Of a DNA stretch of 64,000 bases, positions 2,565 to 48,331 are shown one piece after another. The DNA is from an uncultured Gammaproteobacteria bacterium (GTDB lineage: Bacteria > Patescibacteriota > Microgenomatia > UBA10105 > UBA927): contig CAZUOM010000004.1 in the NCBI GenBank assembly GCA_964621305.1, positions 14,209 through 78,208 on the forward strand. Direction: 5' to 3'. A program made the translations under genes and the position numbers. Positions within the stretch are counted from its first letter, which is position 1. The number at the start of each line of letters is the position of its first letter. Below the pieces are notes generated by a model, which saw only the letters and a list, made by a program, of their open reading frames with translations, ran no database searches and was not told the DNA's origin.

Positions 2565-3953
2565 ATGGTGAGAACTCTTGCTGCAGAAACGGTAACGAAA
2601 ATAGGACAGGAAGTGGTTCTTAAAGGCTGGGTCAACAGCCGCCGGGATCATGGGAAAATCATGTTTCTCGATCTAAGGGATATAAGTGGGATAGTGCAGA
2701 TGGTGGGGCAGGGAGTAGATGCTCGACCGGAAGATGTGGTTGAGGTTGTGGGACTCGTCAAGGAGCGGCCCAAGGAAATGGTAAACCCTAAATTAGAAAC
2801 GGGAACGATTGAAGTAGAAGTGAGAAGCTTGAAAATACTAAGTAAGGCAAAAGAACTACCATTCCCCATAGAGACTGATGGCTACGACATAGATGAGGAA
2901 ATTCGTAACAAGTACCGTTATCTGGATTTGCGTCGGCCAAGAATGGCTCGTAACATTCGCCTACGGTCGAAGGTAGTTAACTTCATTCGGCAATTTTTAA
3001 TCGGTCGGGATTTTGTCGAGATAGAAACACCGATCTTGACCAAAACCACACCTGAAGGCGCGCGAGATTTCCTCGTGCCATCTCGGCTCCAGAAGGGCAA
3101 ATTTTACGCACTTCCCCAAAGCCCACAACAATACAAGCAACTTCTTATGGTTTCCGGCATGGAGCGGTACTTTCAGATTGCGCGCTGTTTTCGTGATGAG
3201 GATCCGCGTAAGGATCGGGCGTATGGAGAATTTACTCAACTTGACTTAGAAATGTCGTTTATTACGCAAGAAGATATTTTGCAGCTTACAGAAGAGCTCT
3301 TTACAAACTTAGTTAAGGAGTTGTTACCCAAAAAAAGAATAAGCCAATCGCCCTGGCCTAGGCTTACCCATAAAGAAGCAAAAGAAAAATACGGAACTGA
3401 TAAGCCGGATTTACGAAAAGACAAGAGCAACCGTGATGAACTGGCGTTTTCCTGGACAGTCGATTTTCCGCTCTTTGTCGAGCAAACCAAAGAGGATTTT
3501 TACTATGGCTCCGGGTCGGCCAAATTTGCTCCCTCACATCACATGTTTACCGCTCCTCACCTGGACGACATTTCGCTTTTAGACAGTGATCCCCTCAAAG
3601 TTCGTGGCCAGCAGCATGATTTGGTGCTCAATGGCTATGAAGTAGGCGGTGGCAGCGTGCGGATCCATGACTCAAAAATTCAAGAAAAAGTATTTGAACT
3701 GATTGGATTTACTGCCGAGCAAAAAAAGCAGTTTGAACACGTGCTCGCCGCATTTGGCTACGGCGTGCCGCCGCACGGAGGGATTGCGCCGGGTATTGAC
3801 CGGTTTCTGATGGCCGTCCTCGGCGAGCCGAGTGTCCGCGAGGTCATGGCATTTCCAGCTTCTGCCTCCGGCCAAATTAGCGTGATGGAAGCCCCAAGTG
3901 AGGTAGTAGAGGAGCAATTAAAAGAGTTAGGTATAAAAGTCGTTTCCCGCTGA
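2565..3953 (+). CDS. aspS: aspartyl-tRNA synthetase (class II, compact form)
   Basis: N-terminus MVRTLAAETVTKIGQEVVLKGWV..RDHGKIMFLDLRD matches the anticodon-binding domain. LPQSPQQYKQLLM and FRDEDPRKDR class II motifs. Start chosen by N-terminal homology, not the upstream TTG. Confidence 0.85.
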   Translation: MVRTLAAETVTKIGQEVVLKGWVNSRRDHGKIMFLDLRDISGIVQMVGQGVDARPEDVVEVVGLVKERPKEMVNPKLETGTIEVEVRSLKILSKAKELPFPIETDGYDIDEEIRNKYRYLDLRRPRMARNIRLRSKVVNFIRQFLIGRDFVEIETPILTKTTPEGARDFLVPSRLQKGKFYALPQSPQQYKQLLMVSGMERYFQIARCFRDEDPRKDRAYGEFTQLDLEMSFITQEDILQLTEELFTNLVKELLPKKRISQSPWPRLTHKEAKEKYGTDKPDLRKDKSNRDELAFSWTVDFPLFVEQTKEDFYYGSGSAKFAPSHHMFTAPHLDDISLLDSDPLKVRGQQHDLVLNGYEVGGGSVRIHDSKIQEKVFELIGFTAEQKKQFEHVLAAFGYGVPPHGGIAPGIDRFLMAVLGEPSVREVMAFPASASGQISVMEAPSEVVEEQLKELGIKVVSR

Positions 3954-3958
3954 TTTAA

Positions 3959-4927
3959 ATGGCAAAGAAGAAGGTTTTTTACCGGTATAATTGGTGGCGA
4001 AAATCCCTTGATAAAATACTTTTTTTGGTGGCGATAGGGTTTTTTCTACTACTGAGTCCCGGGCAAAATAAATATTTTGCCATTACAGAGAAGCCATCAA
4101 GTCTATTGCGATCACTTCCATTTCTCGTTCCGACACCGGCGCCATATCCGACCAATATCACAGGTCTTTATCCAGGCACTGAAATTACAGGGCAGGGGAT
4201 TGTGATTGTGGATGTAGATAGCGGAGTTTATCTTTATAAACGCAATGAGGAAGAACAACTGGCGCCGGCCTCCACGACCAAAATCATGACTGCCTTGGTG
4301 GCTCTGGACAAGTATAAACTAGACGACGTATTGACGGTGCGCGCCACTGTCAATAGCGGGCAAACCATGAAGCTAGTCTTCGGCGAGCGGCTTACGGTTG
4401 AAAATCTTTTGTACGGGACGCTCATCCAGTCTGCCAACGACGCAGCTTTTGTTATAGCTGACAACTTCTCTGCAGGCATCTCGGCATTTGTGGAAGCGAT
4501 GAATAAGAAAGCAGCAGATCTACATTTAACAAAAACTCACTTTACTAATCCCGTGGGCTACGATGATCCGAATCACAAGATGACGCCGATGGATCTGGCG
4601 CGCCTGTCATCGATTGCTCTAACTAACCCAACGATTGCCAAAATGGTAGCCATCCCGCAGATTACTGTTTCTGACGTGACTCACACCTATTTCCATCCGC
4701 TTGCCAACGTCAATCAGCTTCTTGGGAAAATTCCCGGTGTTGGGGGGATAAAAACCGGATGGACGGAGGCTGCAGGGGAAAACCTCGTAACGCTTGTTGA
4801 GCGCAATGGACATATGGTGATCATCGTTCTTTTAAAAAGCAGCGACCGTTTTGGAGAAACAGCAAAGCTCATCGACTGGGTATTTGGCAATTACCAGTGG
4901 AAAGAATTTACTCGGTCCATTCTCTGA
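3959..4927 (+). CDS. D-alanyl-D-alanine carboxypeptidase (peptidase S11, PBP5/6-like)
   Basis: SxxK (ASTTK), SxN (SAND) and KTG (KTGWT) motifs. N-terminal transmembrane anchor. Confidence 0.8.
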   Translation: MAKKKVFYRYNWWRKSLDKILFLVAIGFFLLLSPGQNKYFAITEKPSSLLRSLPFLVPTPAPYPTNITGLYPGTEITGQGIVIVDVDSGVYLYKRNEEEQLAPASTTKIMTALVALDKYKLDDVLTVRATVNSGQTMKLVFGERLTVENLLYGTLIQSANDAAFVIADNFSAGISAFVEAMNKKAADLHLTKTHFTNPVGYDDPNHKMTPMDLARLSSIALTNPTIAKMVAIPQITVSDVTHTYFHPLANVNQLLGKIPGVGGIKTGWTEAAGENLVTLVERNGHMVIIVLLKSSDRFGETAKLIDWVFGNYQWKEFTRSIL

Positions 4928-5960
4928 CGACCGCCGGTACGTACGCCAGAAAACCATTGTCCCCTTCAAAAACAAAAATCGGCTGGAGATACGTTTGGGG
5001 ATCATAAGAGTCGTAGTAACCTAGGTATACATTGCGTATAACTACCGTTGTGCCGGTACGCGGAGAGCGTGCTATATAGCCCTCTCCAGATTGCAATTCC
5101 TGCCATGCTTGACTCGTTGGTTTGATCGCATAGGTTGCTGCGGCTTCAAAATCAATAGGCCAAAGATTGTAGGCAAATTGAATCAGTTGTTTTTTCCGAT
5201 GCGTTGACCCGGAATATATAAAGGCAACCGGTGCTTCATCTGGATTTGGTTGAAATATACGATTACCAAAAATATCTTTTCTAAAAAAATCAATTCTTAA
5301 CGCATCAGCGGCTGATAGGCTAGTCGTAGTTACCAATTTGTCACCCACAAGTTTTAGGTATGTAACTTTTTGCGTACCTACTTTCAGGTCTTCATCCAAT
5401 AGATTGAATCCTCGTAGGAGTCCTATGGATTCGGTGACAAGCGCATCAGCGCTAGAAAATGCATGATCGGAAAATAGACCAATATCCTGTTCAAATGCGT
5501 AGCGGAGGATAAAGTGCCCGGAGACAATGTCGTATCTGAGTTTGCGCAGGGTAAGTTCTTGATCGTCAAAGCGGTAAATATTTTTGCTTTCTTGTATCGG
5601 GGTCGGATCTAGATCGAGCCGATGGGCAAAATCTTGTGTTTTTGGCAAAGCAAGTAAATTTGCAGGCTGTTTTGGCATGAAATAAACGGTTGCAGATTCG
5701 GAGGCTTTCGGGACAATACCCTCTATGGTTTCAAGCTGAAAGGCAAGGGCGGCGGAAGAGGAAGCTTGCGGAGGAAAGACGATAGCTGGAAGCTTGCCAA
5801 ACCGATGATTGGGAGGCGGTGGTTTGGGTGGAAAGAAGGAGAGCCAGATAGCAACAAACATGCTCCCAAAAATCCGTAATAAAAAATACAAAATGACTGC
5901 AAGTATCAGCCAATTGACGGTTCTTCGTGTATAATAGGCGGTCTCAGTTAGGGTAGCCAT
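4908..5960 (-). CDS. hypothetical membrane-anchored protein with a proline-rich segment
   Basis: Start set at MATLTETAYY.. (ATG at 5960), which gives a transmembrane helix at the N-terminus. The longer ORF would overlap divergent gltX by 140 nt. Contains FPPKPPPPNH. No homology recognised. Confidence 0.45.
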   Translation of the reverse strand: MATLTETAYYTRRTVNWLILAVILYFLLRIFGSMFVAIWLSFFPPKPPPPNHRFGKLPAIVFPPQASSSAALAFQLETIEGIVPKASESATVYFMPKQPANLLALPKTQDFAHRLDLDPTPIQESKNIYRFDDQELTLRKLRYDIVSGHFILRYAFEQDIGLFSDHAFSSADALVTESIGLLRGFNLLDEDLKVGTQKVTYLKLVGDKLVTTTSLSAADALRIDFFRKDIFGNRIFQPNPDEAPVAFIYSGSTHRKKQLIQFAYNLWPIDFEAAATYAIKPTSQAWQELQSGEGYIARSPRTGTTVVIRNVYLGYYDSYDPQTYLQPIFVFEGDNGFLAYVPAVVREWTE

Positions 5961-8402: not shown

Positions 8403-8473
8403 CTGGGAGACTTGGATTCGGACCAAGATAAACGGATTCAGAGTCCGTTGTCCTACCGTTAGACGATCTCCCA
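8403..8473 (-). tRNA. tRNA-Gln (anticodon CUG)
   Basis: Manual cloverleaf on the minus strand: acceptor UGGGAGA/UCUCCCA with U1-A72 and G73 (Gln identity elements). D-stem GUCU/GGAC. Anticodon stem ACGGA/UCCGU with loop CUCUGAA. T-arm CUUGG-UCCGAAU-CCAAG. CCA is not encoded. Confidence 0.8.
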
Positions 8474-8699
8474 GCTCAAGTCACAGCGATGGCGGGCAGG
8501 CAGAGTCCGCTGTACACGCCTCATCGGCGGGTCGCCGGAGAGGCGACTACCGTTATACGACCCCGCAAGTAGCCATATTATAGCGGAAAACGCCTCTGGA
8601 GAGAATTCGATAATGCCTTTGATATAATCAGCTTATGAAGCTCTATCTTTTCGGAGGCGCAGAAGTTCAGTTGGGGCAGGTTGATGCTCTTACGGAGTT

Positions 8700-8728
8700 C
8701 TTGACAAGAAATAATTATTTTGATAGAA
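8700..8728 (+). promoter_or_regulatory. candidate sigma70-type promoter (TTGACA, 17-nt spacer, TAGAAA) upstream of the ABC transporter
   Basis: Sequence motif only. Confidence 0.3.
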
Positions 8729-8819
8729 AATATTTCAGGTAGATAGTGGTTATTGAATACGTGAAGTGCACGATAGTGGCTCTAAAACTACCAACGCTAA
8801 AGAAAGTAAAAATCAAAGG

Positions 8820-8858
8820 ATGAAAAAAATGGTAACAAAAAAACGTCTTCACGCATAA
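8820..8858 (+). CDS. candidate 12-codon leader ORF (MKKMVTKKRLHA)
   Basis: AAAGGA 3 nt upstream of the ATG. An intrinsic-terminator-like hairpin follows. Speculative. Confidence 0.2.
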   Translation: MKKMVTKKRLHA

Positions 8859-8872
8859 CTTTTTCCAATAAC

Positions 8873-8898
8873 GCCTCCACTTTTACGTGGAGGTTTTT
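8873..8898 (+). terminator. hairpin CCTCCAC-ttttac-GTGGAGG followed by TTTTT (attenuator or terminator-like)
   Basis: 7-bp GC-rich stem plus T-run, 27 nt upstream of the ABC ATPase start. Confidence 0.45.
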
Positions 8899-8924
8899 CA
8901 TTTAATTAATTCTTGCCAAAATGA

Positions 8925-9842
8925 ATGGAACATATGATTACTCTTGATGGTATTACCAAGAAATTTAACGATCAGACCGTCTTAAATGATATAAATCTGA
9001 AAATTAATAAAGGAGAAATTGTTGGTCTCTTAGGCCCCAATGGAGCAGGAAAAACTACCACGCTTCGGATAATTGCCGGAGTATTGCCGCCAACAAGAGG
9101 CACGGTCAAAATAGATAACCTTGCACTTGAACTGGACTGGCGTCTTAAAAAAAGAATAGGCTTTCTGCCTGAAAACAACCCCTTGTACGAAGATATGACT
9201 GTTGAAGAGTATTTGTCTTTCTGGTCGGATATGAAACAGATTCCTAAAAGTAAAAAAAAGGAAGCGATTGGTTTTGTCGTTGACCACTGTGGTATTGCTG
9301 AAGTTTACTTTCGGCCAATTAGTGAATTGTCAAAAGGGTACAGGCAGCGTGTCGGTTTTTCCCAATCAATTCTAACTAAACCCGATATTTTAATCCTTGA
9401 TGAACCAACCGAAGGCTTAGACCCAAATCAAAGACAGGATATAGCGAATTTGATAAAAGATTTGGGCAAGAAACGGACAATTGTTATCTCCTCCCACGTC
9501 TTGGGTGAACTTTCCAGAATAGCAAGCAGAATGATAATTATCCATAGGGGGGCAATTGTGGCTGATGACACGCCTGACAACCTGAAAAAGATTGGCATTT
9601 CCTCACAAGTAATTGAGATTGAGGTAAAAGGAAAAAATGTTTTATCAACGCTTAAGAAAGTTAAGAGTGTTATTGAAGTTAACGAAAGAAGAAACAACTA
9701 TTATGTTCTTGAGGTTGATAAAAAGAAAGATATCCGCGAGGAGCTTTATAATCTTTCGGTCAAGAATAAGTGGACAATGCTTACACTGCTTGCAAAAGAA
9801 AGAGCAATTGAGGATGTCTTTGGGCAATTAACCAGCAATTGA
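8925..9842 (+). CDS. ABC transporter ATP-binding protein (ABC-2 exporter type)
   Basis: Walker A GPNGAGKTT, signature LSKGYRQRV, Walker B ILILDEPTEGLD. Confidence 0.8.
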   Translation: MEHMITLDGITKKFNDQTVLNDINLKINKGEIVGLLGPNGAGKTTTLRIIAGVLPPTRGTVKIDNLALELDWRLKKRIGFLPENNPLYEDMTVEEYLSFWSDMKQIPKSKKKEAIGFVVDHCGIAEVYFRPISELSKGYRQRVGFSQSILTKPDILILDEPTEGLDPNQRQDIANLIKDLGKKRTIVISSHVLGELSRIASRMIIIHRGAIVADDTPDNLKKIGISSQVIEIEVKGKNVLSTLKKVKSVIEVNERRNNYYVLEVDKKKDIREELYNLSVKNKWTMLTLLAKERAIEDVFGQLTSN

Positions 9843-36236: not shown

Positions 36237-36240
36237 AGGT

Positions 36241-36835
36241 ATGCAGTACACAATCTTAGGGAAAACCGGACTTAAAGTGTCAAGAATCGGTTTTGGAGGT
36301 TGGGGTATTGGTGGGGGTGCACCAGTCTTGCGGTGGTCTGATATGTGGAAGGCTAACGACAGTCTTTCTAAACAGGCATTGATTAAAGCATACGATCTCG
36401 GCGTAAATTTCTACGACACTGCTTTAGTATATGCAGATGGCCATAGCGAGAGACTGATCGCCAATACCTTAAAAGGTAAAAATATTATAGTCGCCACCAA
36501 AGTACCGCCAAAAGACTTTCATTAATATTTTTGATCAAGCCCCCAGAGATAAATTATTTCCACTTGCTCGTAAAAATAATATTGGAATTATTGCAAGAGT
36601 ACCGCTAGATGAAGGCTCACTTGGAGGGCTTTTTACTCCAAAGAGATCAATGGCTCAGATTGCGTTGAAGTATTGTTTGTTAGATGAGGGGGCAGATGTT
36701 GGTATTGTTGGAATGCGTAGCCCTAATCATGTCGCCGAGAACCTAGAAAGTATTAACGTTGAATTAAAACCGGAAGAAATAGATTATCTTAACAGTCAAA
36801 GATGGATCAGAAACTTTTATCCTGAAGATGTATAA
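36241..36835 (+). pseudogene. aldo/keto reductase with an internal deletion of about 100 codons and a frame change
   Basis: N-terminal fragment [36 protein letters not shown] (stop at 36525). The C-terminal portion, [58 protein letters not shown]..., continues in the +1 frame to 36835. The central TIM-barrel part is missing. Confidence 0.6.
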
Positions 36836-36867
36836 TTCTAAAATTAAAAATGTAAAGCGTATGGTAG

Positions 36868-36893
36868 TATAATTGATAGGAGGGGAGGTGAGA
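36868..36893 (+). promoter_or_regulatory. perfect -10 box TATAAT (36868-36873) followed by a strong Shine-Dalgarno sequence AGGAGGGGAGGTGAG (36879-36893)
   Basis: Seen directly, immediately upstream of the Cys-rich ORF. Confidence 0.4.
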
Positions 36894-36896
36894 GAT

Positions 36897-37007
36897 ATGT
36901 GTCAGATGTGCGGGTGCACGCCGTGTGCCAAATGCGGCAAGGAAATAAAAAACGGCAAGTGCGCGGGCTGCAATAAAAAATCCTCTGAGTGCAGCTGTAA
37001 GACGTAA
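36897..37007 (+). CDS. 36-aa cysteine-rich peptide (9 Cys): MCQMCGCTPCAKCGKEIKNGKCAGCNKKSSECSCKT
   Basis: Strong Shine-Dalgarno sequence 4-18 nt upstream, preceded by TATAAT. Overlapping CxxC/CxC motifs. Below the 60-aa cut-off of the ORF track. Confidence 0.45.
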   Translation: MCQMCGCTPCAKCGKEIKNGKCAGCNKKSSECSCKT

Positions 37008-37360
37008 GTCGTAATTTTACTGATCTTTATTCCTTAACGCGGTTGTTACGAAGATTGATCTGTGGTAGTAGGTCATACCATGTTCTTAGATTGTCATCAG
37101 ATGGGCTCTTGTTCATAACCTTTATTTATTCTCCAGTTGTAAACGGGAGACTGTTTATGAAGTTGGTGCATCAGTTTGTCTCTATGAACTTTTGTGACAA
37201 TACCCGCTGCAATTACAGGATGAATTGTTGCATCGGCATCAACAATAGAACGAATTTGGAAAAAGATTACACTATTAAAAGCAAAAATGCATGTTGACAA
37301 AAAAGAAATAATCATGCAAAAAGGAGATACCATTATTATTCCTTTAAAACGGCTCACCTC

Positions 37361-38500
37361 ATGCTCCAACCTATCTCACAAGCAACGCCCATAATTTCTT
37401 TACCGCTGCCGATAAGCGAAGGTCTTAAACCTCGTGGCACGCGAGTGATGCTGCCGCACGGGGGACTACCGGAAATTTTTCCTCCGTATTTGGCAGATCT
37501 CATACAAAAAACCGGTGGACCGACCGGACCCATCGGGCTCCAATTTGTGTCGCGGCCGGAGTTGGAGCGCAGGTTTTTCAAAACAGGGATGAAAGACCCA
37601 CTTATCGAAGACGAGCACGAGGTGGCACCGGGTCTTGTGTATAAATATCGAAGCAATATTGGGAAGAAGAACGGTGAGATGTTTTACTGGGGTCGGGCGC
37701 TTTGGACTATCACCCGCCACTGCGCTAGTTACTGCCGTTTTTGTACACGGGGGAGAGAAGTGGGGATTCCCACTGGAGTCGAGGGAGTCAGTGCTGCGGC
37801 CTTGGCCCATACACCGCATCTTCTTATGGATCAAATTAATGAAACACTGAGCTTTATTGAGAAAGAGAAGGGAATTAATGAAATCATACTTTCCGGTGGC
37901 GACCCGATGACGGTGCACCCTACCATCCTTCAATATATATTAGGGAAACTGGGTGAGCTCCAGAAAAAAGGCAGGCTCGCCATCGTACGGATTGGAACGC
38001 GCGTGCCGGTACATAACCCACTACTTCTTCGCGATGATCACTTTAAGGCAATATCTCAACTTAAGAACCCTCGGATGATGATTCATATAAATCATTATTT
38101 AGAGTTGACAGAGCAAACTCTTGGGGTTCTTGCGCGACTCCGCAAAGAGTGCGGAGCTGTCGTCATGTCACAATCAGTTTTACTCAAAGGCGTCAATGAC
38201 GATGTTGAGACACTTTACTTACTGTTTACAAAACTGACTTCTGAAGGAATTGTTCCGTATTACGTGTTTCAAAACGATCCGGTCTATTGGGCCGAGCATT
38301 TTACGGTGTCCATCAAACGTGCCGTCAAAATGTGGCAGAAGTTGCGCCCCATGCTTTCGGGAGTGGCAGCAACTGCCCGCTTTGTCATCGACACACCGAA
38401 AGGATACGGAAAAGTTCCCCTACCAGAAGGAGATGGGTGGGAAGTCAACTACCGCCGAGGCTACCGCGACTTCCACGGCAACTGGTTCCCCCTTAGATGA
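37361..38500 (+). CDS. KamA-family radical SAM enzyme (lysine-2,3-aminomutase/EpmB-like)
   Basis: CASYCRFCTR (Cx3Cx2C). The N-terminal region DPLIEDEHEVAPGLVYKYRSN aligns to the KamA DPLHEDDHSPVPGLTHRYPDR. An alternative start at ATG 37448 is possible. Confidence 0.7.
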   Translation: MLQPISQATPIISLPLPISEGLKPRGTRVMLPHGGLPEIFPPYLADLIQKTGGPTGPIGLQFVSRPELERRFFKTGMKDPLIEDEHEVAPGLVYKYRSNIGKKNGEMFYWGRALWTITRHCASYCRFCTRGREVGIPTGVEGVSAAALAHTPHLLMDQINETLSFIEKEKGINEIILSGGDPMTVHPTILQYILGKLGELQKKGRLAIVRIGTRVPVHNPLLLRDDHFKAISQLKNPRMMIHINHYLELTEQTLGVLARLRKECGAVVMSQSVLLKGVNDDVETLYLLFTKLTSEGIVPYYVFQNDPVYWAEHFTVSIKRAVKMWQKLRPMLSGVAATARFVIDTPKGYGKVPLPEGDGWEVNYRRGYRDFHGNWFPLR

Positions 38501-40971
38501 TGGGCTGTTTGGGCAGTCACCGCTTTTTGTTTGATTGCCTCAAGAAAGAAGATAAAGACCCCTGTTGCCACAACAGCAGCCAGCCAATTTCCTATCGGCA
38601 ACGGGACCGTGTGGAACACGGCAGATAACCTCGGTTGGTAGATGAGTGCAATCAAGAGCGTTAGTCCGCAGGCGGCGGCACCGAGGAGCCAGCGATTGTC
38701 AAACAAACGCAAACTGATGACGGGTTTATCTAGTGCTCGGAGCGAAAAAGCAGCACTTAGGGAACACAAACAAACAAAGACAAATACCGTCGTTTGCCCG
38801 AGAGCCAGATCGTTCATCATCAGGCCATAGAGAGCAAACAAAACAAAGCCCAATGCCGCCTTCACCGTACTTGTTGTAGCAATGAACCGCTTCACGGAAA
38901 GTGGAAAAAGTGACCTGTTGGTGTCATGAGGTTTTACGGAAAGCACCTCTCCATCTTTTGGGTCCACGGCTAGTGCCAGGTTTGGCAAGCCGTCGGAGAT
39001 AATATTGATCCAAAGAATCTGTATGGCGGTTAGTGGCAGCGGCAAGCCGGCAAGGAGGGAAGCCGTGATAAGGAGCACCTCGGTGAAGGCATCAGACAAT
39101 AGATAGATGACTACTTTACGGATATTGGCAAAAATCACGCGACCTTCTGCAACCGCTGCCACGATGGTGCGGAAACTGGAGTCCAAAAGCACCATGTCCG
39201 CCGTTTCCCGTGCCACATCGGATGCGGTTCCCACCACAATGCCGATATCGGCTTTTTTGATGGCCAGCGCATCATTGATACCGTCACCAGTCATGGCGAC
39301 GACTTCACCATTTAACTGAAGTGCCCCCACAATGGCGAGTTTCTGCTCGGGGGTGACGCGACAGAAGAGTCTGATCGTTTTTACCCGCCGGGCAAGCTCA
39401 TCCGGTGAAAGATGTGCAAGCTCTTTGCCTTCGATGATTTCAGAACTAGGATTGTCAATGGGTATACCCAACTCTGCAAGCACTGCCTCGGCGGTCAGTC
39501 GGTAGTCGCCGGTTACCACTTTTACTGAAATTCCTGCCTGCCGACAGGCTGCAAGCGCCTGGGAAACGTCGTGTCTGACTGGATCGGAAATACCCACGAC
39601 TCCCAGAAATGTCAGCTTATCGACGTCATCTGTTTTTAGTCGGTTTAAGGTATGAGATTTAGAAGCCAGTGCGATCGCGCGAAGCCCTTTGTCAGCGAGG
39701 GAGTTGACTGTCGCAAGCCACCTCTTGCGTGCGGCGGCCGAAAGCGTGCTTTTTTCAAGCAACACTTCGGGAGCTCCTTTCACCCAGATCTTGCCGGCAG
39801 TGGCAACCGCCATGTATTTTTTAGTACTGTCAAAAGGAAGCTCGGATCGCCGTGGGTGCTCATCGGCTATTTCCTGAGGATCGGTATGATCTTTTTTTTG
39901 CACCCACTCCCAGAGGGCTATCTCTAAAGGGTCGGTAAGGTCGTTGGCGATGACAGCGGCCAGCGTCACCTCGTGTGGGTCAACAACTCTTTCTTTTACC
40001 ACCTGCATGACTCCCTCGGTGAGGGTGCCAGTTTTGTCAACGGCCAGGCAGGTAACTGATCCCAGCGTCTCAGCCGAGATAAGCCGCCGCACTAGGGCTC
40101 GCTGTTTGAGTATCCGTTGCATGCCGATGGCTAAAATCACCGTCAGGGTAACGGCCATACCTTCGGGAACAGAGGAAACAGCCAGTGCCACCGCGGTCGT
40201 AAACATCACGACGAGCTTTTCTCCACGGTTGATACCGATGAGGAACACAAAGAAGCTAACACCCAGGAGAATGCCGGTCATGGTGCGGGCAAGACTTCGC
40301 AGAGACAGCTGGAGTGTCGTTTCTTCCTCGGGTGTTTCTTCCAATGTTTCGGCAATGGAGCCAATTCTGGTATGCATTCCCGTGGCTGTGACGCGCATGG
40401 TAGCCCTGCCGGAAAGCAGGGTAGTTCCGGCAAACACGGTTGAGTCCCCATCCACGTATTTAGACACCGGGAAGCTCTCGCCGGTGAGGATTGCTTCGTT
40501 TGCGGATGTCTCATGTGATTCAAGGAGTATACCGTCGGCTGGGATACGGTCGCCTGCGGCAAGCAGTACCGTGTCATCTGGCACGAGCCCTTTCGCGTCG
40601 ATGATCTTGGGTTTCCCATCGCGAATAACCCGGACATTTTGGATGAGGAACTTTTTGAGCGCATAGAGGCTGTGTTGGGCTTTTCTCTCTTGAACAAATC
40701 CCAGGATGGTATTGATGAATACGGCCAGAAAAATAATTGTGGCATCCACCAGGTCTTGTAAAAGCACGGTCACGAGACCGGCCGCAAGCAGGACATAGAT
40801 GAGGGGGCTTTTGAATTGAGAAAGGAAAAGACTGACATCTGACGGCGGTCTTCGTTCCCGGATGGTATTTGGGCCGTATTGGTTATAGAGTCTATCGGCT
40901 TCTTCGGTGGTCAACGACGGTAGTGCGGTCACAAATTTTATTATACTCTTGCTCACAACCGCTTTATCCAT
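38461..40971 (-). CDS. cation-transporting P-type ATPase (type II, Ca2+/Mg2+-like)
   Basis: TGES, DKTGTLT, PEGM (TM4), GDGINDALA. No CPC heavy-metal motif. Confidence 0.85.
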   Translation of the reverse strand: MDKAVVSKSIIKFVTALPSLTTEEADRLYNQYGPNTIRERRPPSDVSLFLSQFKSPLIYVLLAAGLVTVLLQDLVDATIIFLAVFINTILGFVQERKAQHSLYALKKFLIQNVRVIRDGKPKIIDAKGLVPDDTVLLAAGDRIPADGILLESHETSANEAILTGESFPVSKYVDGDSTVFAGTTLLSGRATMRVTATGMHTRIGSIAETLEETPEEETTLQLSLRSLARTMTGILLGVSFFVFLIGINRGEKLVVMFTTAVALAVSSVPEGMAVTLTVILAIGMQRILKQRALVRRLISAETLGSVTCLAVDKTGTLTEGVMQVVKERVVDPHEVTLAAVIANDLTDPLEIALWEWVQKKDHTDPQEIADEHPRRSELPFDSTKKYMAVATAGKIWVKGAPEVLLEKSTLSAAARKRWLATVNSLADKGLRAIALASKSHTLNRLKTDDVDKLTFLGVVGISDPVRHDVSQALAACRQAGISVKVVTGDYRLTAEAVLAELGIPIDNPSSEIIEGKELAHLSPDELARRVKTIRLFCRVTPEQKLAIVGALQLNGEVVAMTGDGINDALAIKKADIGIVVGTASDVARETADMVLLDSSFRTIVAAVAEGRVIFANIRKVVIYLLSDAFTEVLLITASLLAGLPLPLTAIQILWINIISDGLPNLALAVDPKDGEVLSVKPHDTNRSLFPLSVKRFIATTSTVKAALGFVLFALYGLMMNDLALGQTTVFVFVCLCSLSAAFSLRALDKPVISLRLFDNRWLLGAAACGLTLLIALIYQPRLSAVFHTVPLPIGNWLAAVVATGVFIFFLEAIKQKAVTAQTAHHLRGNQLPWKSR

Positions 40972-40983
40972 TAGAATGGTTGC

Positions 40984-41757
40984 ATGGAAGAAGGGGAAAA
41001 GAAAATTTCATTTATTGGCAATAATCCGTTTCAAATAATTATTCTCGTGGCAGTTATCGTCGGTGCGTTTTATCTCGGGTCTCTCAAAACGAAAGTGGAG
41101 ATTCTCGAGCGTGGAGGGGTAGGCTCGGGTCAGAAATCAACGATCCCAGCAGGACCCAACGCACCGGCCGCTCCCCAGCCGCCACCGCCGCAGTCAGCAG
41201 GGGACGTTCCCAAAGTCACTAAAGACGACCACGTCAAGGGAGATCGAAAAGCCAGAATTGCCCTCATCGAGTACTCCGACCTCGAGTGCCCTTTCTGCAA
41301 GCGCTTTCACCCGACAGCCCAGCAGGTGGTGGATGAGTACAAAGGTAAGGTGATGTGGGTGTATCGGCACTTTCCACTGGATCAGATCCATTCTAAAGCA
41401 GACAAGGAGGCCGAAGCCACCGAATGTGCCTGGGAACTGGGAGGAGACGACGGATTCTGGAAAATGACGGATAAGATTTTCGAGACGACCCCATCCAACA
41501 ATGGGCTCTCCCTGGACGATTTGCCGGAACTGGCAAAAGCAGCGGGGCTAGATGCCGCCAAATTCAAAGAGTGCCTGGATAGTGGACGTCAGGCGGCACG
41601 GGTGGAAGAGCAGTACCAAGGAGGGGTCCGTGCAGGCATTACCGGGACTCCGGGCAATATTCTTCTTGATACCAAAAGCGGCAAGACCCGCTTGCTTCCT
41701 GGTGCAGTACCGTTTGATTCGATCAAACCAGTGATTGACGAAATGTTGAAAGGATAA
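40984..41757 (+). CDS. DsbA-family thiol:disulfide oxidoreductase, membrane-anchored
   Basis: N-terminal transmembrane helix, Pro-rich linker, thioredoxin fold with CPFC active site. Confidence 0.7.
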   Translation: MEEGEKKISFIGNNPFQIIILVAVIVGAFYLGSLKTKVEILERGGVGSGQKSTIPAGPNAPAAPQPPPPQSAGDVPKVTKDDHVKGDRKARIALIEYSDLECPFCKRFHPTAQQVVDEYKGKVMWVYRHFPLDQIHSKADKEAEATECAWELGGDDGFWKMTDKIFETTPSNNGLSLDDLPELAKAAGLDAAKFKECLDSGRQAARVEEQYQGGVRAGITGTPGNILLDTKSGKTRLLPGAVPFDSIKPVIDEMLKG

Positions 41758-46883: not shown

Positions 46884-47315
46884 ATGATCAGGCGGATTGG
46901 GCTGGACAGCATGGTGTTTATCTATTTCTTCGAAAAACGCGAGCCCTACGGATCTATTGCCAGAGACTTTATTGCCCAGATTGAAAACGGTAAGATACTG
47001 GCTGTTACTTCATTCGTCACCATTATTGAAACCCTGTCGGTAGCAAAGCTACAAACCAACCCAGTGTTGTACGACGATATCGTTTCATTTTTTCAAACGA
47101 CCCCATCGTTGACTATAGTCTTTCCTCATTGGGAAGTGTCTTTAGCAACAGCGAGACTGCGGCAGAAGTACTCTAAGCTACGGACACCCGATGCCATTCA
47201 GCTAGCCACAGCAGCTATAGAAAACGTTGATTATCTCGTTACTAACGATAAACGTCTTTTACATCTGCCTCAACCGCCCGTCCCGATTCGTGCTATTCGC
47301 AATCTGGTAGAATGA
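46884..47315 (+). CDS. vapC: PIN-domain toxin (VapC family)
   Basis: Acidic residues in GLDSMV, IIETL, PDAIQLA and TNDKRL. Confidence 0.65.
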
Positions 47316-48331
47316 GCCTCATGGAAGATACCCTTAAAACCAGAGCTGCCGAAGTACTTGTTAAACTCAACCTTGACCAAAAGCGTAAAGTCATACGTGA
47401 TCTTACGGCGGAAATCTCCCACCCCGATTTCTGGAAAGACAATCAAGCGGCCAAGCAAAAAATGAAGGAGCTCGCTAGCCTCCGAAAGGAGCTTGAAGAT
47501 GGTGAAATGTTTGAGTTTTTGGTTAGCGAAGGAAAAGAAGACGAGGTTATTAGAGAATTGAAGCGTCTTGAGTTTGCACTTTATTTGTCCGGGTCTTACG
47601 ACCGGGGAGATGCAATTTTTGCCATTCATGCAGGCCAAGGAGGAATCGAGGCAATGGACTGGACTGCTATGCTTTACCGAATGTACAGCCGCTACGTCGA
47701 GCGCAAAGGCTGGCAGCTTGAAGAAATTGATTATACGCCGGGAGATGAAGCAGGGATAAAAAGTGTTACTGCAAGTGTTTCTGGGCGATTTGCCTTTGGA
47801 TTTCTTAAAGCTGAAGCGGGTGTGCACAGACTTGTTAGACAATCACCGTTTAATGCTGATAAACTGAGGCAGACTTCATTTGCGATGGTAGAGGTGTTGC
47901 CGGTTATAGGAGAGTCAGTTGAGTTAGAGATTAAAGAGGAAGATCTTGAGTGGGATTTTTACCGAAGTGGAGGCCACGGCGGCCAAAACGTCAACAAAGT
48001 TTCAACCGCCGTACGTCTTCGTCACAAACCCACAGGTATCGTCGTAACTAGCCAAGCACAGCGTTACCAAGGGCAAAACCGTGAGCATGCTCTTACTATT
48101 TTGCGCAGTAAGTTGTGGGAATTGGAACAGAGGAAAAGGTTTGAGGAAGAAAAGTCAATCCGCGGGCAATACAAGACGCCGGGGTGGGGCAATCAAATCC
48201 GTTCTTATGTTCTTCATCCATATCACATGATCAAAGACTTACGCACCAGGCACGAAACCGGCGATACGGATAGGGTGCTGGGCGGGGACATTGAAGACTT
48301 TGTCGTTGCGTACTTGAAAAGTACGGCGTAA
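47312..48331 (+). CDS. prfB: peptide chain release factor 2
   Basis: GGQ motif ([11 protein letters not shown]) and the RF2-specific SPF motif (RQSPFNAD). One continuous ORF, so no programmed frameshift here. Confidence 0.85.

Follow-up and report, generated by a model that had tools for sequence, protein, structure and literature searches.

A conserved nine-cysteine mini-protein, probably metal binding, encoded next to a KamA-like radical SAM gene and independent of it

Introduction

Two described groups of small proteins resemble the nine-cysteine peptide reported here: metallothioneins, as generally defined (PMC10612145), and zinc-ribbon or rubredoxin-knuckle mini-proteins, such as the haloarchaeal CPxCG micro-proteins and the zinc-ribbon ribosomal proteins. 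Like the metallothioneins used for comparison (the vertebrate beta-domain, Neurospora Cu-MT, SmtA/BmtA and MymT), the peptide is tiny, has about 25% cysteine in CxC/CxxC arrays, lacks aromatic residues and histidine, and is rich in Lys, Ser and Gly. In the vertebrate beta-domain, nine cysteines form an M3Cys9 cluster. The peptide has no detectable sequence homology to metallothioneins and differs from them in the strong conservation of its non-cysteine residues and of an 8-residue spacer. With the haloarchaeal CPxCG and zinc-ribbon mini-proteins it shares a length below 40 residues, two CxxC(G) knuckles placed 8 residues apart, and a predicted beta-hairpin between the knuckles.

A third point of comparison is SCIFF (six cysteines in forty-five), a ranthipeptide whose gene is consistently adjacent to that of its maturase, an enzyme that carries a SPASM domain. 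The locus described here likewise has a short cysteine-rich ORF near a radical SAM gene; unlike in SCIFF, the pairing is not conserved, and the enzyme, an aminomutase of the PLP type, gives no SPASM match. This enzyme shares with KamA, AblA and EpmB the CxxxCxxC and GGD motifs and the equivalents of residues R134, D293, D330 and K337 of lysine 2,3-aminomutase (LAM; 2A5H). We take K337 to be the PLP-binding lysine, and R134, D293 and D330 to hold free lysine by its carboxylate and epsilon-ammonium groups. The LAM reaction proceeds via PLP-bound radical intermediates (PMC9105233). Literature searches on metallothionein in Patescibacteria and small cysteine-rich bacterial proteins, and on aminomutase in the Candidate Phyla Radiation, found nothing relevant.

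Results

A nine-cysteine ORF with a strong Shine-Dalgarno sequence

The window (the whole 64,000-nt stretch of DNA analysed) contains a 36-codon ORF with the translation MCQMCGCTPCAKCGKEIKNGKCAGCNKKSSECSCKT, in which cysteine occupies residues 2, 5, 7, 10, 13, 22, 25, 32 and 34 (25%) and Phe, Tyr, Trp and His are absent. An earlier note, made from the letters of the window, had drawn attention to this ORF, to a TATAAT box and to a long Shine-Dalgarno sequence, all of which are present:

36897..37007, + strand: nine-cysteine mini-protein gene, 36 codons, member of a widespread unnamed family
36844..36873, + strand: promoter-like site, TTAAAA + 18-nt spacer + TATAAT, with the -10 hexamer at 36868..36873
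36878..36892, + strand: Shine-Dalgarno run AGGAGGGGAGGTGAG, 15 nt, ending 4 nt 5' of the ATG

The Shine-Dalgarno run occurs once in the window and in 0 of 100 shuffled sequences. The promoter-like site agrees with the consensus at 10 of 12 positions, its -35 element TTAAAA being weak, and the three such sites around the small ORF are no excess over the 3.3 expected from shuffles; we regard the TTAAAA/TATAAT site as a consensus match only. A look-up of the exact 36-aa peptide returned no record. When 64-kb sequences were simulated with a first-order Markov model, 2 of 100 contained nine cysteines within 36 stop-free codons, so that composition alone is no more than suggestive and comparative evidence decides.

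The peptide belongs to a family under purifying selection

Comparison with homologous genes shows that the small ORF is a genuine, strongly conserved gene under purifying selection. Nucleotide identity to L001, a related locus that also carries both genes, is 72.5% within the ORF and 27-30% in the flanks, and across the family mean pN is 0.157 and mean pS 0.804. The resulting ratio of 0.195 indicates that the peptide is kept at the amino-acid level, the point on which the earlier note had asked for a check. Both cysteine codons are in use at each of the nine sites among the recovered copies, and 54 of the 62 distinct homologous genes are preceded by a Shine-Dalgarno-like motif.

The family is large. 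At least 231 metagenome copies were confirmed by tblastn, and searches that used no fixed patterns returned 32 representatives and 165 protein clusters; homology alignments took a 44-aa, TTG-extended form of the ORF as query. The 82 recovered family ORFs (63 distinct DNA sequences, 47 distinct peptides) encode 35-41 residues, and the cysteine spacing is the same in all 82, although the 80 metagenome loci were fetched with two fixed peptide patterns, so that residues 9-16 and 17-25 look more invariant among these loci than they otherwise would. In an alignment of 73 family sequences, the ten invariant columns are the nine cysteines and G6, and G6, P9, G14, I17 and G24 are the non-cysteine residues that are invariant or nearly so. 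Conservation extends from residue 2 to residue 34, and only the tail past C34 is variable. Host GC content ranges from 36 to 68%, and the named members, most of them from Planctomycetota, are all annotated as "hypothetical protein". Searches of Pfam and NCBIfam at E values up to 1 gave no match to the peptide, including to Metallothio_Pro, and a PDB sequence search at E values up to 10 gave no relative and no metallothionein chain.

A putative zinc-ribbon-like core and a second cysteine site

An AlphaFold2 model of the peptide, built on the 73-sequence alignment (mean pLDDT 84.5), has a hairpin at residues 17-18/21-22, between two CxxC pairs, and a Foldseek search gave weak matches, mostly to cysteine-rich zinc modules. 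The general marks of a metallothionein (small size, cysteine-rich CxC/CxxC arrays, no aromatic residues) are found in the peptide and in the aligned family core. Judged by these sequence features and by the model, a metallothionein-like protein or tiny zinc ribbon is plausible and is the reading that we prefer. Specifically, metal would most likely be held by a zinc-ribbon-like core and a second cysteine site, in the manner of a metallothionein.

The small ORF would thus be an independently expressed gene for a protein of ~35-40 aa that folds around thiolate-bound metal. C10-x2-C13 and C22-x2-C25 would form two knuckles on a short beta-hairpin and provide a Cys4 site of the zinc-ribbon type, and the N-terminal C2, C5 and C7, together with the C-terminal C32 and C34, may build a second site or join a shared cluster. 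The conserved non-cysteine residues and the conserved 8-residue spacer suggest that the protein has a fixed fold and is not a flexible thiolate cluster. Such a metallothionein-like or double-zinc mini-protein could serve in metal buffering or hand-over, or in thiol protection, under stress. We infer metal binding, the assignment of cysteines to sites and the role in stress; the main explanation as a whole, comprising both the independence of the mini-protein from KamA and the metal-binding mechanism, is in our judgement likely.

The peptide has no conserved neighbouring partner gene

No partner gene is conserved beside the nine-cysteine peptide. Neighbour clustering and a Pfam census of 148 representative neighbours, with 136 Pfam families, gave no family present in more than 3 of them, and no metal transporter or metal regulator recurs among them; the gene downstream of the peptide varies between loci. 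In the window, zupT and a P-type ATPase had been put forward as a metal context, and this does not hold up: the ZIP transporter gene lies 8 kb from the small ORF, and the ATPase, which has Cation_ATPase_N/C domains, belongs to the P2-type cation pumps and not to the P1B type that transports heavy metals. The metallothionein-like or zinc-ribbon idea thus retains its plausibility from sequence and model, but gains nothing from metal-related gene context.

In some lineages stress genes recur beside the peptide. They add to the plausibility of metal binding, and would also suit a redox protein that is not a metal store, namely a sacrificial or reversible thiol/disulfide buffer, a scavenger of electrophiles or reactive oxygen species, or a small Fe-S cluster carrier induced by general stress. 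In 21 of 82 loci a CsbD gene with the same orientation as the peptide gene lies 45 nt upstream of it; these 21 hold just 8 distinct peptides, the loci with stress-gene neighbours being redundant and lineage-specific. A gene for a WrbA-like flavodoxin (quinone reductase) adjoins the peptide in 9 of the 82 loci and one for a rhodanese in 10, and Fe/Mn superoxide dismutase, flavodiiron protein and DJ-1/PfpI genes are neighbours in other lineages. However, none of these stress-gene contexts occurs in the window or in L001, and the paired CxxC knuckles about a hairpin in the model are typical of structural metal sites. We consider such a redox protein unlikely; a redox function would in any case be compatible with metal binding, since metallothioneins do both.

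It is considerably more doubtful that the peptide is a precursor, or a secreted cysteine-rich peptide, whose maturing enzyme has its gene in another part of the genome. The peptide is small and cysteine-rich, and the short contigs leave room for an enzyme at a distant locus. Yet no maturase-type family recurs among the 148 representative neighbours, and the peptide has neither a signal peptide nor the leader and variable core of RiPP precursors, its invariant motif beginning at residue 2. Furthermore, the full-length sequence stays near-identical in hosts of 36-68% GC, whereas modified peptides have variable cores.

The downstream gene encodes a probable lysine 2,3-aminomutase

The next intact gene on the same strand starts 353 nt 3' of the small ORF:

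37361..38500, + strand: KamA-like radical SAM/PLP aminomutase gene, 379 aa, with the motif CASYCRFC; a neighbour of the small ORF, not its functional partner

The best NCBIfam matches of this protein are KamA-type families, namely TIGR00238 and its equivalogs for AblA, EpmB, and glutamate and arginine 2,3-aminomutase, all of them aminomutases, and its score is below the curated cut-off of every one (score/cut-off: TIGR00238, 145.9/199.2; TIGR03822, 171.5/396.25; TIGR03820, 163.3/525.4; TIGR03821, 145.5/369.3; TIGR04368, 141/650; TIGR04468, 134.3/600). It aligns with lysine 2,3-aminomutase 2A5H at an E value of 2.7e-33 and contains the GGD motif. The catalytic residues are conserved: all 121 family members have the CxxxCxxC cysteines and the counterparts of LAM R134, D293 and K337, and at the position of D330 120 members have D and one has E. 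The earlier note had called the gene, about 350 bp downstream, canonical KamA-type; its protein falls below all NCBIfam cut-offs, although the catalytic residues are intact.

Pfam detects Radical_SAM, a sub-threshold LAM_C match (11.7 bits, cut-off 26.7), and no SPASM, twitch or other peptide-binding domain. Unlike classical KamA/AblA, the enzyme lacks the C-terminal LAM_C domain, ending ~25 residues past the PLP lysine, and lacks Cys268 of the inter-subunit zinc site, the equivalent of this zinc ligand being S, N or D in its family. The conserved catalytic residues mark the enzyme as a PLP- and SAM-dependent 2,3-aminomutase, and its substrate is probably free L-lysine: retention of the PLP lysine and of the lysine-binding residues points to a chemistry that requires a free alpha-amino acid.

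The enzyme belongs to a Patescibacteria-wide clade, in which gene surroundings differ. A DsbA-like gene lies 3' of KamA in three close relatives (immediately so in L001 and L002), and a Ddl-like ATP-grasp gene lies 5' of it in six more distant ones; neither Ddl-like nor LysA-like partners of KamA are present in the window. EpmA or EF-P was found in 0 of 10 size-matched window ORFs, a partial test confined to the window, and neither is among the recurrent families listed for 111 neighbours at 23 KamA loci.

The peptide and the KamA-like gene do not go together

The pairing of the peptide with the KamA-like gene is not conserved, and the two have no functional link. At orthologous radical SAM loci elsewhere, 23 of 24 have no peptide ORF within flanks of up to 6 kb, the outcome that the earlier note had named as one that would refute its proposal. 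The exception, L001, has the peptide four genes (3.6 kb) upstream of KamA, starting 33 nt past the secA stop codon. Conversely, a tblastn search with KamA against 83 peptide loci (408 kb) matched L001 alone, a locus retrieved by way of KamA in the first place, and found no KamA homologue in the 82 loci recovered through the peptide. Many of these peptide loci are short contigs, where a partner a few kb away could escape detection; the converse test, which started from KamA loci and covered as much as 6 kb on either side, is free of this weakness.

The surroundings of the small ORF in the window contain two decayed genes, both shown by their sequences to be pseudogenes:

37029..37258, - strand: relic of an RNase HII gene (rnhB), a pseudogene that retains just the C-terminal part and contains a change of frame and an in-frame stop
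36238..36835, + strand: relic of an aldo/keto reductase gene, a pseudogene 5' of the small ORF

The rnhB relic matches Pfam RNase_HII and, over profile positions 110-160 of 188, NCBIfam NF000595 (E 1e-13). In a tblastn comparison with the intact RNase HII of L024, a locus that has rnhB within the same secA-to-KamA interval, the relic covers residues 120-167 in frame -1 and, interrupted by a stop, residues 169-196 in frame -3, and has no counterpart of residues 1-119. The aldo/keto reductase relic consists of an N-terminal fragment (Aldo_ket_red positions 1-71 of 291) and a C-terminal fragment (240-288), 125 nt apart and in different frames. The 353-nt spacer, which the earlier note had described as containing no convincing ORF, thus has no intact gene but does hold the minus-strand RNase HII relic. 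Together, the relic between the two genes and the one upstream show that the adjacency of the small ORF and KamA is a by-product of gene loss: the secA-to-KamA interval is variable, and loss of intervening genes has left the peptide beside the KamA-like gene.

Elsewhere in the window, a programmed frameshift of RF2 was considered for the ORF before the RF2 gene (47312) and rejected; by eye this ORF resembles a PIN-domain toxin, not the N-terminus of RF2.

The favoured reading of the earlier note, in which the peptide is a ribosomal precursor modified by the adjoining KamA-family enzyme, has in its favour the short distance on one strand with no intact gene between and the existence elsewhere of pairs of cysteine-rich peptides and radical SAM enzymes such as SCIFF. 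We now regard it as extremely improbable. The two genes fail to co-occur, being four genes apart even in L001, and in the window a decayed gene on the opposite strand separates them. In addition, the enzyme keeps the PLP lysine and the residues that hold free lysine by its carboxylate and epsilon-ammonium groups and has no peptide-binding domain in Pfam, and the peptide is conserved from end to end and shows no division into leader and core.

Equally hard to sustain is a chance ORF, or a cysteine-codon-rich leader peptide controlling the downstream gene: shortness, strong translation signals, the long untranslated stretch that follows and the simulation result speak for it, but it is contradicted by protein-level conservation with saturated synonymous sites, by the near-invariant non-cysteine residues, by a downstream gene that changes from locus to locus and in the window is an opposite-strand pseudogene, and by a spacer with no Rfam match (E up to 1, 36800..37450) and no terminator-like hairpin. 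At gathering thresholds, Rfam finds only two tRNAs in the whole window, both away from the spacer.

Implications

Dropping the reading in which a KamA-type aminomutase modifies a new class of peptide saves follow-up effort, and the locus serves as an example of how gene decay can make misleading adjacencies in small genomes. The peptide itself represents a highly conserved family of 35-40 aa proteins that has no Pfam or NCBIfam model and has been largely missed by automated annotation. It is present in hundreds of environmental genomes, including those of reduced Patescibacteria, where the genes that are kept tend to matter.

Tentatively, we propose that the peptides, which are widespread among uncultivated Planctomycetota and Patescibacteria and in other bacteria of sediment and groundwater, make up a new bacterial metallothionein-like family with either two sites or an M3Cys9 cluster. 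Its members would have no sequence relationship to SmtA/BmtA and MymT, would buffer metal or stress on their own, and would comprise basic-tailed and acidic-tailed subtypes; this fuller proposal is possible, and we hold it with less than even confidence. Should the peptide prove to buffer metal or thiols, a metallothionein-like family would be added to those of bacteria, and uncultivated lineages would offer a way into the study of their metal and redox homeostasis.

The small nine-cysteine ORF is a genuine gene of a widespread family

The 36-codon ORF reported by the earlier note is present in the window, and both signals said to precede it, a TATAAT box and a long Shine-Dalgarno sequence, are found 5′ of its start codon:

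36868..36873 (+): TATAAT, with a weak −35 element (TTAAAA) 18 nt 5′ of it
36878..36892 (+): Shine-Dalgarno run AGGAGGGGAGGTGAG, a single occurrence in the window, reached in 0 of 100 shuffles
36897..37007 (+): nine-Cys ORF, from the ATG to the end of the stop codon, 36 aa, MCQMCGCTPCAKCGKEIKNGKCAGCNKKSSECSCKT

Promoter-like sites around the TATAAT are not in excess over shuffles. A stop-free 36-aa stretch with nine Cys was reached in 2 of 100 Markov simulations, so the Cys composition, taken alone, is only suggestive of a gene.

The small ORF is a genuine gene from a widespread family, unnamed and of a known general kind. A metagenome pattern scan yielded at least 231 confirmed copies, of which 80 loci were fetched; two gave no matching ORF, and the other 78 were combined with the window, L001 (from a close relative), L026 and L027. 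All 82 ORFs encode 35–41 aa with Cys exactly at positions 2, 5, 7, 10, 13, 22, 25, 32 and 34, an invariance that is in part imposed, as the 80 fetched loci come from two fixed patterns. The peptide is conserved at the amino-acid level, with a mean pN of 0.157, a mean pS of 0.804 and a ratio of 0.195 (63 distinct DNA sequences, 47 distinct peptides). Each Cys site uses both TGT and TGC across the copies, a Shine-Dalgarno-like motif lies upstream in 54 of 62, and the hosts span 0.36 to 0.68 in GC. In L001, the peptide (MCQGCGCSPCDKCGKEIKNGTCSGCNKKSGECTCEKKN) begins 33 nt past the secA stop codon, behind a strong Shine-Dalgarno sequence of its own; nucleotide identity between the window and L001 is 72.5% in the ORF versus 27–30% in the flanks.

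Two independent searches confirm the family picture: a profile HMM matched 32 of 1.84 billion representatives, and a word-indexed search gave 165 clusters. G6 and all nine Cys do not vary among 73 aligned sequences, and P9, G14, I17 and G24 hardly do. No Pfam or NCBIfam model matches the peptide, and its relatives are all named "hypothetical protein" at source, the named hosts being Planctomycetota and Phycisphaerae MAGs. Some members carry long acidic tails. In this subtype (relatives P0128, P0140, P0141, P0143, P0147, P0153, P0209, P0218 and P0245), a strongly acidic Glu/Asp tail of up to ~50 residues stands where other members have a short Lys tail, and the source-named relatives come from Planctomycetota/Phycisphaerae MAGs.

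Gene wreckage flanks the small ORF in a variable interval

The sequences flanking the small ORF are the remains of decayed genes, and the interval between secA and the KamA-like radical SAM gene is variable between the window, L001 and L024. The features of the window are as follows:

36238..36835 (+): aldo/keto reductase pseudogene, 5′ of the small ORF, beginning 2 nt past the secA stop codon
37029..37258 (−): RNase HII (rnhB) pseudogene, C-terminal part alone, in two frames with an in-frame stop
37361..38500 (+): KamA-like radical SAM gene, 379 aa, CASYCRFC, the next intact same-strand gene
38461..40971 (−): P2-type cation ATPase, convergent, its 3′ end overlapping that of the KamA-like gene by 40 nt
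40984..41757: membrane-anchored DsbA/Thioredoxin_4 gene (L001 7209..8033; L002 7138..7953; L024 about 8427..9161)

The aldo/keto reductase relic keeps profile positions 1–71 and 240–288 of 291, separated by a 125-nt gap and in different frames, corresponding to an internal deletion of ~170 aa and a frame change. An unrelated peptide locus, L085, has an intact aldo/keto reductase upstream of the peptide.

The 353-nt spacer between the small ORF and the KamA-like gene, in which the earlier note saw no convincing ORF, is not featureless, since it contains the minus-strand RNase HII relic. Specifically, a 90-aa minus-strand ORF matches positions 110–160 of 188 of NCBIfam NF000595 (E 1e-13) as well as Pfam RNase_HII. 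Residues 120–167 of the intact RNase HII of L024 correspond to window 37258..37115 in a single frame, and residues 169–196 to 37112..37029 in a different frame with an in-frame stop, while residues 1–119 have no counterpart in the relic. No further rnhB copy is detectable within the 64-kb window, and neither an Rfam family nor a terminator-like hairpin was found in the spacer.

KamA-like orthologues with 58–86% identity are common across Patescibacteria, e.g. Gottesmanbacteria and Woesebacteria. The close relatives L001, L002 and L024 share a backbone of the KamA-like gene, a DsbA-like thioredoxin gene (directly 3′ in L001 and L002, after one intervening ORF in L024) and then, encoded on the other strand, ruvB, ruvA and ruvC; secA lies upstream of this block in L001 and L024. 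The window has the same backbone plus the P2-type ATPase between the KamA-like and DsbA-like genes; the DsbA/Thioredoxin_4 gene following the KamA-like gene is a conserved pairing in Gottesmanbacteria-type relatives. In the window, the secA-to-KamA interval contains the reductase relic, peptide gene and rnhB relic. In L001, the peptide gene shares this interval with a 171-aa gene and three efflux genes, and in L024 it holds a putative antitoxin/PIN pair (by eye from translations), rnhB, intact and on the minus strand, and a PNPOx-like gene. The peptide adjoins the KamA-like gene in the window only because intervening content was lost.

The 171-aa gene of L001 (2400..2915, +) begins 13 nt past the peptide gene, has no counterpart in the window and no Pfam match, and by eye shows a signal-like N-terminal segment and a hydrophobic C-terminal segment. 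Elsewhere in the window, ORF 46884..47315 (+) has, by eye from its translation, a PIN-domain (VapC-like) look and overlaps by 4 nt the start of the RF2 ORF (47312..48331, +), whose prfB model match begins at profile position 94.

The peptide is probably a thiolate-metal mini-protein

From its sequence and predicted models, the peptide is probably a thiolate-metal mini-protein. It shares the general marks of metallothioneins (25% Cys, no aromatic residue or His, Lys/Ser/Gly-rich), and its C10-x2-C13-G and G-x-C22-x-G-C25 motifs, with a conserved 8-residue stretch between them, resemble the knuckle pair of a zinc ribbon. AlphaFold2 models (mean pLDDT 79.8 with 3 sequences, 84.5 with 73) both place short strands at about 16–18 and 21–22, between the two knuckles; no significant fold neighbour was found. 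A second site, or a shared cluster, could be formed by the five further invariant Cys, which lie at the two ends of the peptide.

The main alternative is a purely redox role for the peptide. Gene context hints only softly at a stress role: in 21 of 82 peptide loci, CsbD is found 45 nt upstream and in the same orientation, but just 8 distinct peptides are involved, and a WrbA-like gene adjoins the peptide in 9 loci and a rhodanese in 10.

Peptide and KamA-like enzyme are not a conserved pair

The metal-binding readings offered by the earlier note survive, but its favoured one, a precursor modified by the adjacent KamA-family enzyme, is refuted by a pairing that is not conserved, the kind of outcome that the note itself had set as refuting it. 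On the enzyme side, the peptide is absent from 23 of 24 other distinct KamA-like loci (6-kb flanks on both sides in most); in the sole positive, L001, it lies 3.6 kb and four genes from the KamA-like gene. On the peptide side, a KamA-like tblastn against 83 peptide loci (408 kb) matches L001 alone. A census of 148 representative neighbours of the peptide gave 136 Pfam families, each seen at most 3 times, and individual long peptide contigs carry unrelated neighbours, such as genes for a class I Trp/Tyr-type tRNA synthetase, TGT, GreA, Fe/Mn SOD, a protein of patatin/Omp85 type, a multi-haem cytochrome and an aldo/keto reductase.

The KamA-like enzyme may act in a beta-lysine pathway

The downstream same-strand gene, noted earlier as KamA-type, is KamA-like: among NCBIfam models it best fits those for lysine, glutamate and arginine 2,3-aminomutase and for EpmB, and the protein aligns with Clostridium lysine 2,3-aminomutase 2A5H (E 2.7e-33). 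All 121 family members keep the three cluster Cys and residues equivalent to R134, D293 and K337; at the position of D330, 120 have D and one has E. In 2A5H, we take K337 to bind PLP, R134 to hold the carboxylate of the substrate, and D293 and D330 to hold its epsilon-ammonium group. Lysine 2,3-aminomutase shifts an amino group via PLP-bound radical intermediates (PMC9105233). Such chemistry would require a free alpha-amino acid, which would make an internal peptide residue an implausible substrate. Unlike lysine 2,3-aminomutase, the KamA-like protein has neither LAM_C nor the Zn-ligand Cys268, and it scores under all curated family cut-offs; we describe it as KamA-like, without assignment to a named equivalog.

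The KamA-like gene is directly preceded, on the same strand, by a Ddl-like ATP-grasp gene in six more distant relatives of Peregrinibacteria, Gracilibacteria and related types (L011, L013, L014, L015, L017 and L019). Of these six divergent D-Ala-D-Ala-ligase-like genes, the five that were scored do not reach the Ddl cut-offs. L018 has a LysA-like PLP decarboxylase gene immediately 5′ of the KamA-like gene (3805..5001), and L021 has one ~1.4 kb upstream (3351..4580). These neighbours hint at a small-molecule beta-lysine pathway, and the ATP-grasp, LysA-like and KamA-like genes may represent a previously undescribed operon that would make and ligate beta-lysine.
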